A DNA stretch of 64,000 nucleotides from Candidatus Aminicenantes bacterium (GTDB lineage Bacteria; Acidobacteriota; Aminicenantia; Aminicenantales; Saccharicenantaceae), in assembly GCA_963807525.1 (NCBI GenBank), contig CAWECI010000025.1, forward strand, positions 26,062-90,061. Direction: 5' to 3'. The notes under the pieces are model-generated. The model made no database searches, had not been told where the DNA came from, and saw nothing but the letters and a program-made list of their open reading frames with translations. Every line of letters starts with the position of its first letter. Within the stretch, counting starts at the first letter, position 1. This document shows positions 3,597 to 64,000 of the stretch, piece after piece. The position numbers were made by a program, and so were the translations under genes.

Positions 3597-5921
3597 ATGA
3601 GACACGCCGGGCCCATCGCGATGATGCTGGCCCTGCTCCTGGCCGCCGCTCCGCTGCTTTGCGGCTCCGGGACCGCGCCCGCCGGTGCGGCCGTCCCCGA
3701 TAAGACCCAGGGCTTTTTCCCCGTCTCCGTCTGGTACGCGGGCGGCAAGGCCCGGGCGCCCATGCTCGAGACCGTGACCCCTCAATCGCGCGAGGTCTGG
3801 AAGAAGGACATCGAACAGATCAAGCGGCTGGGCTTCAACACGGTCCGGACCTGGATCGAGTGGACGGCCTGCGAAAAGAACGAAGGGCGATACGACTTCT
3901 CGGCCCTCGAGCTCCTCACCGATCTGGCCGGCGAGGCCGGGCTGCGGGTCATCGCCCAGGTCTACATCGACTCGGCCCCCGACTGGGTCGGCCGGAAATA
4001 CCCCGACGCCAAGTTCGTTTCCTCGAACGGGGTGGCCGTCGAATCGCAGGCCTCGCCCGGGTTCTGCTTCGACCACGACGGCGTCCAGGAGAAGGTCCTC
4101 GATTTCTTCAAGGCCGCGGCCCGGGCCGTCAAGGGCAAGCCGGCCTTCTACGGCTGGGACCTGTGGAGCGAGCCCCACATCATCAATTGGGCCGAGGTCT
4201 ATTACGTCGGCGACCTCAACTCGGTCCAGTTCTGCTACTGCCATTCGACGCAGGACCGCTTCCGGGACTGGCTGCGGAAGAAATACGGCACCGTCGAGGC
4301 CCTCGACAAGGCCTGGTACCGGACCCTGCGGTCGTGGGACGAGGTCCAACCGCCTCGCTACGGCACCATCCTGACGTTTACCGACTACATCGACTGGAAG
4401 GAATTCATCTCCGACAAGCTGGCCGAGGACCTGGCCCTCAAAGCCGCGGCCGTCAAGTCGGTAATGCCGGACACGGTCGTCACCAGCCACTCGGCGGCGC
4501 CCGGCATCTTCACCCGGCCCGACTGGTCGGGGACACCCGACGACCGGAAGATGTCCGACAGCGTCGATTTCTACGGCGCCTCGATCTACCCCAAGCATGC
4601 CTGGACGGTCCGGCCGTGGTCGCCCTTCTACCGCTCCTCGGGGCTCGACTTCGTCCGGTCCATGGGGATCGGGAACGGCGGCTTCTATATCGGCGAGCTC
4701 CAGGCCGGCTACGGCGTCTTCGGCATGAAGATGAGCTATCCCGTGGTGGCGGCCGACACGCGCGACTGGATGTGGAGCACGATCGCCTACGGCGCCCGGG
4801 CGGTCAACATCTACGCCTATTACCCGATGAGCACGGGCTACGAGGCCGGCGGCTACGGCCTGGTCGAGCTCGACGGCAAGGTCACCGAGCGGGCTGAGGC
4901 CGGCGGCCGGATCGCCCGGGTGGTCACCGCCAACCAGGACCTCTTCCTCAAGGCCCGGCCGGCCCCGGCCCAGATCGCCATCCTTTATGATCCGCTCTCG
5001 CACATGGTCGGCGGCCAGCAGGCCTACACCGGCGAAGGCCAGACGATCGGCGTCAACAACCTGAGCGAATCGCTGCAGGGCGTCCACCGGGCTTTTTTCG
5101 AGAGAAACATCCCGGTCGACTTCCTCCACGTCCGCGACTTGGGCACGCCGCGGGCCGCGGGCTATAAGCTCATCATCGCCCCGTACCCGGTCATGATGTC
5201 CCGGCCGCACGTCCAGGCCCTGGTCGAGTACGTCCGCGCGGGCGGCACGCTTCTCACCGAGGCCCGCTGCGGCTGGGTCGACGAGAAGGGGGCCTCGAGC
5301 CCGATCGTCCCGGGCGGCGGGCTCGACCAGGTCTTCGGCTGCCGCGAGCTCGAGCTGACGCCGCTCGCCAAGACCGGCGTCGTCGAGATCAAGGCCGCCG
5401 ACGAGGCCTTCCCACTGCTCAAGCCGGGCGACAGGCTCGACAGCCTGTTCTTCGAGGAAAGCCTGGACGTCTTCGGCAAATCGAGCCGCGTCGTGGCCGT
5501 CTTCCCGGACGGGCGGCCGGCCGTCGTGGCCGCGCCCTTCGGGAAGGGGAGGGCCATCATCGCCGGCTCGTTCCTCGGCTCGGCCTACCATCACTTCAAG
5601 AACCCCAACAATGGCAAGTTCTTCGCCGGGCTAGCCGACTGGCTCAAGATCGCGCCGGCCGTCCGGGTCAGTGCCTCGGCGCCGGACGCCGTCGTCGAGG
5701 CCCGCCTGCTCCAGGGCGACGGTTACGCCCTCCTCTTCGGATTCAACCGCGGCGACAGACCGGTCACCGCCAAGTTCGGCGTATTGACCTCGGCCGCCAA
5801 GCCCGTTGCCGCAGACCTCGAAATGGGTCAGGCCGTGGGAACCGGGCGCGACGGGGACCGCGTCGTCGTCGAAAAGACCCTCCAGCCGGCCGAGGTCTGG
5901 GTCGTGCATATTAAATGGTAG
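3597..5921 (+). CDS. GH42 beta-galactosidase
   Basis: ATG at 3597, 9 nt after GAGAGG; signal peptide; GH42-like N-terminus (KRLGFNTVRTWIEWTACE...) and trimerisation-like C-terminus; ORF track start 3588 is GTG overlapping the RBS. Confidence 0.75.
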   Translation: MRHAGPIAMMLALLLAAAPLLCGSGTAPAGAAVPDKTQGFFPVSVWYAGGKARAPMLETVTPQSREVWKKDIEQIKRLGFNTVRTWIEWTACEKNEGRYDFSALELLTDLAGEAGLRVIAQVYIDSAPDWVGRKYPDAKFVSSNGVAVESQASPGFCFDHDGVQEKVLDFFKAAARAVKGKPAFYGWDLWSEPHIINWAEVYYVGDLNSVQFCYCHSTQDRFRDWLRKKYGTVEALDKAWYRTLRSWDEVQPPRYGTILTFTDYIDWKEFISDKLAEDLALKAAAVKSVMPDTVVTSHSAAPGIFTRPDWSGTPDDRKMSDSVDFYGASIYPKHAWTVRPWSPFYRSSGLDFVRSMGIGNGGFYIGELQAGYGVFGMKMSYPVVAADTRDWMWSTIAYGARAVNIYAYYPMSTGYEAGGYGLVELDGKVTERAEAGGRIARVVTANQDLFLKARPAPAQIAILYDPLSHMVGGQQAYTGEGQTIGVNNLSESLQGVHRAFFERNIPVDFLHVRDLGTPRAAGYKLIIAPYPVMMSRPHVQALVEYVRAGGTLLTEARCGWVDEKGASSPIVPGGGLDQVFGCRELELTPLAKTGVVEIKAADEAFPLLKPGDRLDSLFFEESLDVFGKSSRVVAVFPDGRPAVVAAPFGKGRAIIAGSFLGSAYHHFKNPNNGKFFAGLADWLKIAPAVRVSASAPDAVVEARLLQGDGYALLFGFNRGDRPVTAKFGVLTSAAKPVAADLEMGQAVGTGRDGDRVVVEKTLQPAEVWVVHIKW

Positions 5922-5924
5922 ATA

Positions 5925-5997
5925 AAATGGGGACGTTTCTATTTATTTTTTTCATGATGGACGAAGATGAATAAAAAAAATAGAAACGTCCCCATTT
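5925..5997 (+). terminator. palindromic element (20-bp arms AAATGGGGACGTTTCTATTT / AAATAGAAACGTCCCCATTT) followed by TTTCTTTCTCC; likely rho-independent terminator of GH42 gene; member of a repeated family
   Basis: perfect inverted repeat read directly; starts 4 nt after GH42 stop; T-rich tail. Confidence 0.6.
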
Positions 5998-6090
5998 CTT
6001 TCTCCCGGTCGTCAACTGCGCCATGATCGTCGGCCTGACCCTCGTCGGCAGACTGAGGGCGGGCCGGCCGGCGCGGAAGGAGAGCGCATC

Positions 6091-8856
6091 ATGAGGCCAC
6101 GGAACGGATCCCGGTCCCTTTTCCCGCTCGTCGCGGGTTTCCTCTTCGTCTTCGGCGCGATGGCCTTTGCCCAGGACGCCGCGACCGCTGCGGCGCAAAA
6201 GGAGCTCAGCCAAAAATACGCCCAGCTCCTGGCCGAAAAGGGCGTCACCGACGAGGCCGGCCGGGAGATCGGCGGCCGCTTGGAAAAGATCTTCGCCGAG
6301 GCCCGCGCGGCCGGCGCCAGGACCTCCAAGGACCTGGTCAGGTTCGCCCTCACGGCCATGAACTACGCGGCCTCGAACCTGGCCGGCTTCCCGCAGGCCG
6401 CGTTCGACCGGCCCATCGGCACGCGGCTCGAGAAGTTCGGCCACGCCATCGCGCCGGGCGATATCGAGGCCCGGGCCGAAGGCTCCGGCTGTCCGGTCGG
6501 CGGCCTCGGCGCCGGCGGCTTCGAGCGGCTCATGAACGGCAATTTCTCGACCTGGTTCCTCAAGCTCGGCTGGATGGTCGAGGACACGGTCTGGGCCGAC
6601 CAGTTCCATGTCTTCGTCAGGTCCGGCGGCCGGACGGTCGCCAAGACCCTCTCCACGACCGCCCCGCCCGCCGCCGCCGGCCTGGGCGCCTGGGCCTGGA
6701 GCTATCCCGTCGGCCGGGGCGACTATTTCGCCCTCTTCCCCAAGTCCGGCTTCTCGTACGAAGAGAACGCCGACCTGCCCGTCAGGCTGGCCGTCGTTCA
6801 GTTCTCGCCGATCCTGTCGGGCAACTATAGGGAGACGAGCTATCCCGTCGCCATCTATAAATGGATCGCCCAGAATCCGACCCAGCAGCCGGCCCAGGTC
6901 AGCATTCTCCTGACCTGGGAGAACATGGTCGGCTGGGAGCCGGTCGAGGCCCGCCCGGCGGCCGGCCAGGCGCCCCAGGCCTCCTTCGTCTGGGACCGCC
7001 GCAGCGCCGGGAACTTGAACGAGACCGTGCAGGACGGCCGGGCCAAGGGCGTCTTGTTCCGCCGGCAGGGCCAGAACGTCCGGACGGGGAACGCCATGTC
7101 CGGGTCCATGGCCATCGCCGCCCTGGAGAGCCCGGACAAGTCCCGGGTCCTCATCCAACCCGCCTTCGACCCGCGCGGCGACGGCACCGACGTCTGGGCG
7201 AAGTTCGCCGCGGACGGGACGCTCGAGACGTCCCGGACCTCCTCGCCCGCGGGGCCGGGCCAGGAGACGGGCGCGGCCGTGGCCGTCACCTTCACCCTCA
7301 AGCCGGGCGAGCGTCTCGAAGTGCCCTTCGCCGTCGCCTGGGACCTGCCGTACTACGAGTTCGAGGCCGGGGCCAAGCACAAGAAGAAATACACGGACTT
7401 CTTCGGCGACGGCGGCCTGAGCGCCTTCCGCATCGCTGCCGAGGCCCTGGTCCGGGCGGGGGAGTGGGAACAGGCCATCGACGCCTGGCAGAAGCCGAGC
7501 CTGACAAACCCCGCCCTTCCGGACTGGTTCCGGCAGGCCCTGCTCAACGAGCTCTACGTCCTCGTGGAGACCAGCATCTGGGACGCGGCGACCAACCTTC
7601 ACACCTATCTCGAGAGCGCGGACTACCTCATGTACGGGACGACCGACGTCGATTCCTATTGCTGGCACGTCCTGCGCCTCTGGCCGGAGCTCGAGACGAC
7701 CCACATGAGCTATCTCGCCGGGACCATCCCGCTCGAGGACGCCTCCTACCGGGCCTTCCAATACGCGACCGTGTTCCCGAACGAAGTCCCAGCCGACAAG
7801 AAGGACTATTACTGGAACACGATCAAGCAGGCCGGCATGGTCCCCCACGACGTCGGCTCGCCGCGCAAGCGCCCGTGGACGATCCTGAACGCCTTTGATT
7901 GGCAGAACGCCAACTACTGGAAGGACATCAACCCGAAATTCCCGCTTCGCGCCTACCGGGACTTCCTGGCCACCGGCGGCATCGACATCGGCTTCCTGAT
8001 GAAGATGTTCCAGGCCTCGGTCCTGGCCCTGGACACGCTGGAGGCCCGCTTCGGTGACAGGATCAGCCACGTCCCGCTCGCCGAGGGCATCCCCGACCAG
8101 ACCTATGACACCTGGCGGATGAAAGGGGAGAGCGCCTACGTCGGGCTGCTATGGCTGGCCGGGCTCAAAGCCACGGTCCGCATGGGCGAGACGCTGGCCT
8201 CGCGCGGCCTCGTCCGGGCCGGGGACTTGGATATCCGCGAGATCCTAGTTAAATACAGGGGTTGGCTCGAAAACGGCCGGGCCTCTCTGCGCAAGCTCTG
8301 GGACGAGAGGGCCGGCTACTTTCATATCGACGCGACGAAGGACGACATCATGACCGACCAGCTGTTCGGCGTCTGGTACGCGGACATGCTCGGGCTCGAG
8401 GACGACGGCCGGGACCCGATCGTGCCGCCTGCGGACGCGGCCCGGGCCCTGCGGACGATCTACGACAAGAACGTTCTCGGCTTCGGCGGCGGCGTCATGG
8501 GCGCGGTCAACGGCCGCAAGGCCGACGGCGGCCAGCTCCGCAGCCAGCAGGGCGACGAGGTCTGGGTCGGCACGGCTTACGCCTTCGCCGCCGACCTCGT
8601 TCTCCACGGTCTCCCGGCCGAGGGCCTTCACACCGCTTACGGCGTCTATCAGGTCGTCTATAGTCCCTATGGACAGGGTTATTTCTTCAAGACGCCGGAG
8701 GCCTATCTCGACCCCGACGAAACCCTCTGGAACGATCCGGCCGGGAAGTACGGCGAGAAGACCTTCCGGGCCATGAAGTACATGCGGCCGGGCGCCGTCT
8801 GGGCCCTTTATGAGGTTCTCAGAAAAAATGCGGAAAAGCCGGTACAGAACAAGTAA
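6091..8856 (+). CDS. large secreted (alpha/alpha)6-type glycoside hydrolase, GH116/glucosylceramidase-like
   Basis: 921 aa, signal peptide (AMAFAQDA); size and two-domain layout resemble GH116 (DUF608); family call is tentative recall. Confidence 0.4.
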   Translation: MRPRNGSRSLFPLVAGFLFVFGAMAFAQDAATAAAQKELSQKYAQLLAEKGVTDEAGREIGGRLEKIFAEARAAGARTSKDLVRFALTAMNYAASNLAGFPQAAFDRPIGTRLEKFGHAIAPGDIEARAEGSGCPVGGLGAGGFERLMNGNFSTWFLKLGWMVEDTVWADQFHVFVRSGGRTVAKTLSTTAPPAAAGLGAWAWSYPVGRGDYFALFPKSGFSYEENADLPVRLAVVQFSPILSGNYRETSYPVAIYKWIAQNPTQQPAQVSILLTWENMVGWEPVEARPAAGQAPQASFVWDRRSAGNLNETVQDGRAKGVLFRRQGQNVRTGNAMSGSMAIAALESPDKSRVLIQPAFDPRGDGTDVWAKFAADGTLETSRTSSPAGPGQETGAAVAVTFTLKPGERLEVPFAVAWDLPYYEFEAGAKHKKKYTDFFGDGGLSAFRIAAEALVRAGEWEQAIDAWQKPSLTNPALPDWFRQALLNELYVLVETSIWDAATNLHTYLESADYLMYGTTDVDSYCWHVLRLWPELETTHMSYLAGTIPLEDASYRAFQYATVFPNEVPADKKDYYWNTIKQAGMVPHDVGSPRKRPWTILNAFDWQNANYWKDINPKFPLRAYRDFLATGGIDIGFLMKMFQASVLALDTLEARFGDRISHVPLAEGIPDQTYDTWRMKGESAYVGLLWLAGLKATVRMGETLASRGLVRAGDLDIREILVKYRGWLENGRASLRKLWDERAGYFHIDATKDDIMTDQLFGVWYADMLGLEDDGRDPIVPPADAARALRTIYDKNVLGFGGGVMGAVNGRKADGGQLRSQQGDEVWVGTAYAFAADLVLHGLPAEGLHTAYGVYQVVYSPYGQGYFFKTPEAYLDPDETLWNDPAGKYGEKTFRAMKYMRPGAVWALYEVLRKNAEKPVQNK

Positions 8857-25825: not shown

Positions 25826-25890
25826 AAGAAGGGGTCAAACCTACGCAATGCCAGTTCCGTACTGGCATTGCGTAGGTTTGACCCCTTCTG
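25826..25890 (+). other. perfect 30-bp-stem hairpin (5-nt loop) closing a structured ~330-nt noncoding region
   Basis: CAAGAAGGGGTCAAACCTACGCAATGCCAGT-tccgt-ACTGGCATTGCGTAGGTTTGACCCCTTCTG read directly. Confidence 0.8.

Positions 25891-61703: not shown

Positions 61704-61707
<4 letters not shown>
60853..61707 (-). CDS. dapF: diaminopimelate epimerase
   Basis: 284 aa; N-terminal KVHGLGNDFLL; second-half active-site MGNPHCSLF. Confidence 0.85.
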
Positions 61708-63263
<1,556 letters not shown>

Positions 63264-63345
63264 ATCAGGCCTGAAAATTCAATTTTCCCAGGTCTTCCCA
63301 AAACTCGGCCGGCCCGGGGATGGTTGCGGAAAGCGGGGACGTCTC

Positions 63346-63413
63346 GGAAAATGGGGACGTTTCTATTTTCCCCAACCGGTGACCCTGGGAAAATAGAAAC
63401 GTCCCCATTTTCC
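63346..63413. repeat. second copy of palindromic element (arms GGAAAATGGGGACGTTTCTATTTTCC, 16-nt loop) in degP/tmk divergent intergenic region
   Basis: 26-bp perfect inverted repeat read directly; core identical to 5925-5997. Confidence 0.75.
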
Positions 63414-63438: not shown

Positions 63439-64000
63439 CATGCCCGCTAAGCGCCGCGGCCTGCTCATCGTCCTGGAAGGGATCGACGGCTCCGGCAAGA
63501 CGACCCAGGCCCGGTCGCTTCTCCGCCGCCTCCGGCGGCGGGGCTTCGAGGCCGTCTTTTCCCGCGAGCCGACCCGAGGGCGATGGGGCCGCGAGATCAA
63601 GCGGCACGCCCTCCGGGCCGATTCGCTGACGCCGGAGCAGGAGCTCGATCTCTTCGTCAAGGACCGGCGGGAGCACGTCGCCAAGGATCTCAGGCCGGCC
63701 CTCGCCGCCGGGAAGATCGTCGTCCTGGACCGCTACTATTTCTCGACGATCGCCTACCAGGGAGCCAAGGGCATCGACCCTGGCCGGATCCGCTGCCTGA
63801 ACGAAACTTTTGCCGTCAAGCCAGACCTCGTCCTCTTCCTCGACGTCGCCGCGGCCTCTGGCTTGAGCCGGATCGCCGGCCGGAAGACGCGCGACGCGCT
63901 CTTCGAGCGCCAGGACTACCTCGTTCGCGTGGCCCGCATCTTCGCCGGCTTCAGGGGCCCCCGCTTCGTCCATATCGACGGTCGCGGCGACAAGCGCGCC
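63439..64000 (+). CDS. tmk: thymidylate kinase (3' end beyond window)
   Basis: MPAKRRGLLIVLEGIDGSGKTT P-loop, DRYYFSTIAYQGA; not in ORF track because no stop in window. Confidence 0.85.

Follow-up and report, generated by a model that had tools for sequence, protein, structure and literature searches.

The window, that is, the whole 64-kb stretch of DNA analysed in this study, contains two inverted-repeat elements, at 5924-5998 (copy 1) and 63346-63413 (copy 2), which have the arm AAAATGGGGACGTTTCTATTTT in common and enclose unrelated loops. Copy 1 is located downstream of a GH42 gene (3597..5921, plus strand; Pfam PF02449), the TAG stop codon of which occupies 5919-5921, and the first arm begins about 3 nt past this stop. 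On the other side of copy 1 lies a GH116-like gene (6091..8856, plus strand), at the place where relatives carry a ROK kinase gene. Copy 2 is not located at a gene end: it sits between two divergent genes, an HtrA-like protease gene (61704..63227, minus strand), whose start faces copy 2 at a distance of 120 nt, and a thymidylate-kinase-like gene (tmk; 63441..64000, plus strand), which reads MPAKRRGLLIVLEGIDGSGKTTQ..., starts 29 nt past copy 2 and is cut by the window end. In the HtrA-like open reading frame (61704-63263, minus strand), the middle part encodes a low-complexity run rich in Arg, Gly, and Pro in place of the expected PDZ-domain sequence, and this points to either a frameshifted segment or an error of the assembly. 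Elsewhere in the window, the GC content is lower between approximately 42000 and 55000, at 0.49-0.58 compared with about 0.65 before, with a minimum at 51-55 kb, and this stretch may be a horizontally acquired segment.

Reading of the sequence, pattern matching and folding defined the parts of both elements, all of which are given on the plus strand. In copy 1, the left arm AAAATGGGGACGTTTCTATTT (5924..5944), the same arm that brackets RAYT genes in relatives, faces the right arm AAAATAGAAACGTCCCCATTTC (5977..5998), which is the reverse complement of the arm. Their exact complementarity amounts to 20 bp (5925-5944 with 5978-5997), and they enclose an AT-rich loop of 33 nt (5945-5977) that also pairs within itself in the computed fold; 3′ of the element, the sequence reads CTTTCTCCC. 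By comparison with the RAYT unit of locus L081, the interior of copy 1 (5945..5976) was classified as a B-type loop, TTTCATC...GATGAA, and loops of the same type were found in L016, L017, L022, L036, L041, L054, L071, and L076. In copy 2, each arm consists of a perfect 22-nt core (63348-63369 on the left, 63390-63411 on the right) within a longer stem; the left arm (63346..63372), in which the core is extended by GG and CCC, pairs with the right arm (63387..63413) over 27 bp and leaves a GC-rich loop of 14 nt (63373..63386). This loop is unlike that of copy 1 and has no relatives as a type, and comparable GC-rich loops occur in L045, L046, L051, and L079. A partial arm-like core, GGGGACGTCTC, was detected by pattern match directly upstream of copy 2 (63335..63345, plus strand), and tandem partial arms also occur in L026, L047, L060, L065, and L083.

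The initial annotation had described two distant loci with shared inverted-repeat arms around different loops and had proposed to fold them as RNA. Both points were borne out, since the 16-mer core and the 22-mer each gave four matches in the window, where shuffles predicted 0.00, and the RNA fold energies were −39.7 kcal/mol for copy 1 and −52.1 kcal/mol for copy 2 (z −7.3 and −7.5, respectively). The corresponding DNA folds reached −25.6 and −30.6 kcal/mol, and strong hairpins formed from both strands of each copy, whichever of the two nucleic acids was folded. A lone arm folds weakly as DNA (−3.5 kcal/mol, z −2.1).

A scan of species-representative genomes, in which all counts are lower bounds, revealed the exact 20-mer AAATGGGGACGTTTCTATTT in more than 89 stretches, which belong to at least 35 genomes at species level, well above the two copies known from the window. 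Among the matches listed, nine assemblies were labelled Aminicenantes and 13 Omnitrophota, with scattered singles elsewhere, and the host GC around the matches ranged from 0.36 to 0.72. The NCBI taxon labels of some TPA_asm genomes are unreliable, and isolated matches on short contigs assigned to other phyla may stem from faulty binning. At several element sites, for instance, the flanks in a genome labelled 'Eubacteriales' (CAZFZU) are nearly identical to those in a genome of Aminicenantes. The family is therefore claimed here for Aminicenantes and Omnitrophota only.

In the 89 loci together with the window (about 750 kb, allowing up to five substitutions), 70 inverted doublets and 51 solo arms were counted, versus 1 in shuffled sequence. 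The results showed that a core of about 17 nt, GGGGACGTTTCTATTTT, is almost invariant, including in arms that had not been used to find their locus, and that the outer AAAAT of the arm varies. The doublet loops measure 2-74 nt and fall into several types. No compensatory changes were seen in the pairing of the arms, and C/T mismatches between arms are kept, which implied that the sequence is conserved and not the structure. With many copies in many genomes, and with arms that bracket a RAYT-type Y1 gene in relatives, the dispersed REP- or MITE-like palindromic family proposed in the initial annotation was supported. The possibility, also raised there, that the arms are conserved coding sequence does not agree with their location, as 63 of the 70 doublets are intergenic.

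Viral contigs contained no exact copy of the arm, and carriage of the element by phages is therefore not evident. A search of both copies against Rfam at a permissive threshold returned only generic hairpins of miRNA models, scoring 30-35 bits against gathering thresholds of 69-230, and a literature search with the arm sequence returned only unrelated primers and no paper containing it. On sequence inspection, none of the sigma-54 promoter, parS, dif, KOPS, integron attC, CRISPR repeat, and rRNA or tRNA complementarity fitted the arm.

Solo arms were also observed within coding regions, namely those of lipoprotein signal peptides that are orthologous to one another (L073 around 6955, minus strand; L077 around 3459 and L081 around 3581, both plus strand), where they follow a GGGAGGG ribosome-binding site and read, for example, ATGAGGAAAATGGGGACGTTTCTATTT... 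or MRKMGTFLFISVIFLLFPGCG; in the predicted reading frames of these three loci, the arm is now part of the N-terminus of the lipoprotein gene. A different palindrome of 55 nt, GGGGTCAAACCTACGCAATGCCAGT...ACTGGCATTGCGTAGGTTTGACCCC, perfect except for its central base, occupies 25831-25885 of the window, in an intergenic position just 5′ of a gene. A 14-mer of it is also present in L018, L036, and L176, and in L176 it adjoins a RAYT-flanking doublet. The palindrome may represent a second family of the GGGG[AT][CG] type, rarer than the first.

Clustering of all open reading frames of the 89 loci showed that only one family recurs beside the arms, a Y1 transposase of about 225 aa. It matches Pfam Y1_Tnp (PF01797) with an E-value of 1e-16, above the cut-off, and among the NCBIfam models the one for the REP-associated tyrosine transposase scores best, although its 58-64 bits fall short of the equivalog cut-off of 80. 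Of the relatives with a solved structure, a profile search ranked E. coli TnpA_REP (4ER8) first and ISDra2 TnpA lower; a phmmer search of one RAYT against PDB sequences gave no match, and a profile was needed to reach 4ER8. Inverted arms, arm(+) ... arm(−), bracket the Y1 gene in all ten loci examined (L015, L060, L081, L090, L091, L092/L093, L176, L177, L178, and L179). The order in the unit is an arm(+), often as a full doublet, then a leader of about 70-100 nt, the gene, and an arm(−) that overlaps or adjoins the stop codon. The search for a RAYT or TnpA(REP) gene suggested by the initial annotation thus succeeded in related genomes, where such a gene is found with the same arms. Within the 64-kb window, tblastn detected no RAYT homologue, and we infer the presence of one in this genome from the relatives only; arms and RAYT occur together in the Aminicenantes genome CAVTOI.

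The members inspected (L015, L060, L081, P0007, P0069, and P0088) have 201-229 aa and carry the motifs NH[VIL]H, [WF]Q (VQ in P0007), YIELNP, and SSY. In Table 1 of PMC6006769, subclass 2.1 of TnpA_REP is defined by NHVH or NH[YF]H, W[EQ] or FQ, YIELNP, and an SS tail, with a median length of about 238 aa, and this subclass corresponds to RAYT group 1 of Bertels and to the TIRYTs of Di Nocera et al. (PMC6006769). By motif match to that table, the transposase is a member of TnpA_REP subclass 2.1/RAYT group 1/TIRYT. The C-terminal HTH of TIRYTs (Bac_DnaA_C, HTH_23, or HTH_28) was not detected by Pfam, which gave only PF01797 for three members, and a C-terminal tail of about 80 aa (...GS..F......RGRP) is conserved.

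Most clusters of RAYT homologues have one contig each, and L090 and L176 have the synteny SSF-RAYT-DsbD_N-SelA in common. The RAYT clades track the host group, with 60-67% identity within and 45-48% identity between the Aminicenantes and Omnitrophota types, and both types use the same arm, in which about 17-20 nt are unchanged. Since the RAYTs of the two groups are only 45-48% identical, recent cross-phylum horizontal transfer does not explain the identical 20-mers and was rejected as their source. The comparison instead points to a long-term constraint on the recognition sequence, stronger than the 8-nt GGGGWSAS motif noted before. Some Omnitrophota RAYTs (L091, L092, and L177) have a one-base variant of the arm, GGGGACGGTTC, on their flanks, and in L092 this variant recurs in the hairpins nearby.

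Several further features were observed around the transposase genes. A hairpin upstream of Omnitrophota-type RAYT genes (L015 4100-4140, L060 7205-7240, L091/L092 around 2955-2995, and L178 around 1460-1495) has a conserved loop, ...CGTCTATTAATAG..., and the 3′ strand of the hairpin holds a GGAGG ribosome-binding site, which suggests that translation of the transposase may be kept low by sequestration of that site. Toxin-antitoxin pairs lie directly 3′ of the RAYT in L091 (3877-4484, RHH_3 with Fic) and in L092 (3767-4427, RHH_1 with PIN_3). Another Y1 transposase gene is present in L091 as well, with a repeat of a different kind, GGGGTCAGAATTATTTT, on its flanks.

The interior of copy 1 was compared with the RAYT of L081, which lies inside a B-type element: the left arm is followed by ATTTTTTTCATCTTC, and the end of the gene, ...CGAAGATGAATAAATAAAATAG, continues into the right arm. 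The corresponding order in copy 1 is arm-ATTTTTTTCAT...CGAAGATGAATAAAAAAAATAG-arm. Its 5945-5955, ATTTTTTTCAT, equals the 11 nt just inside the left arm of the L081 unit, and its 5962-5975, CGAAGATGAATAAA, equals the 14 nt just inside the right arm of the unit, which comprise the last RAYT codons (KMNK) and the stop. Copy 1 thus looks like an internal-deletion derivative of a transposase unit, as judged from these two matches. MITEs arise from parent elements by internal deletion of this kind.

The history of the junction that holds copy 1 was examined in 80 metagenome loci encoding GH42 relatives (62-100% identity), in most of which a ROK kinase gene follows GH42. The junction is empty, with an ATGA overlap of the two genes, in L101, L105, L108, and L173; the element is absent and a short spacer is present in L103, L104, and L106; and a B-type element fills the junction in the window, L016, L048, L050, L109, and L142. 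Remnants were found in L099 and in L115/L116 (half an arm in the latter), and a different palindrome family, GGGGACAYGTACC ... GGTACRTGTCCCC, is situated just past the GH42 stop in L107, L110-L113, and L123. Judged from these alleles, the GH42/ROK junction is a repeated landing site for palindromes of the GGGG type. In filled alleles, the GH42 stop codon lies inside the left arm (TAATGGGG) in L142 and a few nucleotides upstream of it in L109, L016, and the window. In L099, the closest ROK-carrying relative (91%), a collapsed palindrome, AAAATGGCGACGCCCATTT, is found 2 nt past the GH42 stop, and this remnant may have formed through a deletion from the ACGT motif of one arm to that of the other, or it may be a scar left by excision.

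The junction element is common to relatives that are 87-100% identical in GH42, and because the loops of the filled alleles are related yet diverged, the insertion was regarded as old and vertically inherited. The homology of the window to the relatives (L016, L099, L109, and L142) ends at 6000, the right edge of copy 1. Copy 1 accordingly marks a synteny breakpoint, at which the ROK gene is absent and the GH116 gene stands in its place. Outside the junction, the DNA of the relatives contained one further element in 471 kb, and the copy number is probably moderate, in the order of tens per genome.

The reading that best accounts for these results, and that we consider very probable, is that both loci are non-autonomous, REPIN-like copies of a RAYT/TIRYT-linked family, copy 1 being a deletion derivative. 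The repeat unit would consist of two inverted copies of a recognition sequence of about 22 nt, built on the near-invariant core, around a dispensable interior. The Y1 enzyme would recognise the arm, probably once the doublet has folded in single-stranded DNA, and its catalytic tyrosine would cut and rejoin the DNA and so seed copies in short intergenic spacers; both steps are modelled on IS200/IS605 and E. coli TnpA_REP, the biochemistry of which is established knowledge. Background on that biochemistry is given in PMC6006769, and a biochemical demonstration of a group 1 RAYT moving its repeats is contained neither there nor in PMC3733652. Effects on the host, such as service as a terminator or mRNA 3′-end stabiliser and the provision of stop and start codons at operon junctions, would be secondary. 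The arm carries no GTAG and its lone copy folds weakly, and recognition may therefore differ from that of the E. coli REP. Against the transposase-linked reading, the junction element is old, further elements are sparse in the relatives, and no recent transposition was seen. Moreover, the identity of the arms despite transposases that are only 45-48% identical could reflect a function at the level of the host rather than selfish spread.

In the first competing explanation, the hairpins are host-selected intrinsic terminators or mRNA 3′-end stabilisers and resemble each other through selection for that function. In its favour, copy 1 follows the GH42 stop closely, and many doublets fill nearly the whole spacer, with 0-16 nt left on the side of the stop codon and 2-30 nt before the gene that comes next. 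Folding is very stable for both strands, and every arm ends in CCCC with ATTTT behind it, so that a short U-tract would result whichever strand is transcribed. On the other side, a simple terminator scan called neither window copy, because their loops are too long (they exceed 8 nt). Among the 58 doublets for which the orientation of the flanking genes could be classified, 38 lie between genes of the same direction and nine between convergent genes, but 11, copy 2 included, have divergent genes on their two sides, a setting that calls for no terminator; solo arms are frequent as well. The arms keep their sequence rather than their pairing, with mismatches that persist uncompensated, and termination would leave the bracketing of RAYT genes by the same arms unexplained. 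A terminator-only function is thus inadequate in view of the divergent cases, the solo arms, and the conservation of sequence rather than pairing, and we regard this explanation as unlikely. A terminator role of the doublets is possible but not general, and any such effect would be a side effect of a repeat element and not its main role.

The near invariance of the core of about 17 nt over hosts of 36-72% GC, together with solo arms near gene starts, would also suit an operator, bound on double-stranded DNA by a transcription factor or nucleoid protein and unrelated to transposition. However, the distance between the two arms ranges from 2 to 74 nt, the adjacent genes are unrelated, with no recurring gene family except the RAYT, and orthologous sites are polymorphic for the presence of the element, which makes an operator very unlikely. 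Still less credence is given to a classical MITE, mobilised by a DDE transposase and defined by 22-bp terminal inverted repeats and target-site duplications. The elements are indeed short and non-coding, they have terminal inverted repeats, and copy 1 resembles a deletion derivative; however, the sole type of gene found between the arms encodes a Y1/HUH transposase, no DDE transposase recurs near the elements in the clustering of open reading frames from the 89 loci, and no target-site duplication was evident at the element boundaries inspected.

For B-type doublets (L016, L017, L022, L048, L050, L088, and others), it was observed that the outward ATG of the loop (GATGAA...) can be in frame with a downstream open reading frame of 100 codons or more, which holds for 11 of 66 cases. 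Read from the ATG in the loop, the ROK gene, for example, would begin with MNKLNRNVPIYCGAVDVGGTK. These frames suggest that the element may supply start codons after splitting overlapping genes.

Compared with known systems, the family described here, as a set of RAYT-linked copies, comes closest to the TIRtrons/TIRYTs (PMC3733652; Quentin 2018, PMC6006769; Bertels 2017, PMC5581495). In both, a RAYT-like gene is flanked by long inverted repeats that start with GGGG[AT][CG], and the protein, of roughly 230 aa, carries the motifs NHVH, WQ/FQ, YIELNP, and SS. The terminal inverted repeats that flank TIRYT genes share GGGGWSAS and occur elsewhere in moderate abundance as singles and dimers (PMC3733652), and the present repeats likewise occur elsewhere in moderate numbers, as singles and as dimers or groups (70 doublets and 51 solos). 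The TIRYT class is widely distributed and includes Acidobacteria. Some differences were also noted. The arm, GGGGACGT/GGGGACGG, agrees with GGGGWSAS at six of the eight positions, whereas the repeat of the second Y1 gene of L091, GGGGTCAG, matches it in full. About 17-20 nt of the arm are kept here between transposases that are 45% identical. RAYT group 1, the largest and most widely distributed group, was scored as having no REP repeats, with flanking 16-mers in about 12 copies (PMC6006769, PMC5581495); in contrast to this 'REP: no' score of subclass 2.1, the repeats found here are mostly tight hairpin doublets.

The REPIN-RAYT systems of Pseudomonas and Escherichia (groups 2/3; Nunvar 2010; Bertels and Rainey 2011, PMC3116915) are similar in that inverted units form an extragenic hairpin, in that a Y1 gene, here probably single-copy, is flanked by the repeat at what appears to be a conserved chromosomal position, and in that the elements persist at orthologous sites. 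They differ in that the arm here lacks GTAG and a lone unit has no clear palindrome, and in that the RAYT belongs to a different group and the copy number is apparently lower. With bacterial MITEs (Correia/NEMIS, RUP, and Nezha), the elements have in common a short length, terminal inverted repeats, a location beside genes, RNA hairpins, and, in copy 1, a derivation by deletion from a transposase-carrying unit, but their partner is a Y1/HUH and not a DDE enzyme, and no target-site duplication was seen.

Taken together, the repeats belong to the known RAYT group 1/TIRYT class, which is now found in phyla without an earlier description of it; none of PMC3733652, PMC6006769, and PMC5581495 links such repeats to Aminicenantes or Omnitrophota. 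RAYT group 1 is thereby tied to a clear population of hairpin doublets in these uncultivated lineages, and deletion derivatives as well as filled and empty orthologous sites become visible for group 1 RAYT repeats. The core GGGGACGTTTCTATTTT constitutes a defined candidate substrate for the study of these enzymes. The results also explain a recurrent AT-rich palindrome that is otherwise open to misannotation as a terminator, a small open reading frame (MGTFLF...), or an RNA gene. Finally, we tentatively propose, as a conjecture that we hold to be less probable than its negation, that the arm is the frozen recognition sequence of an ancient partnership between RAYT and repeat in at least two phyla, kept as portable operon-junction modules. 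If this is true, such a module would not be purely selfish, as it would provide the upstream gene with a stop codon and the downstream gene with an outward ATG, besides contributing a hairpin.
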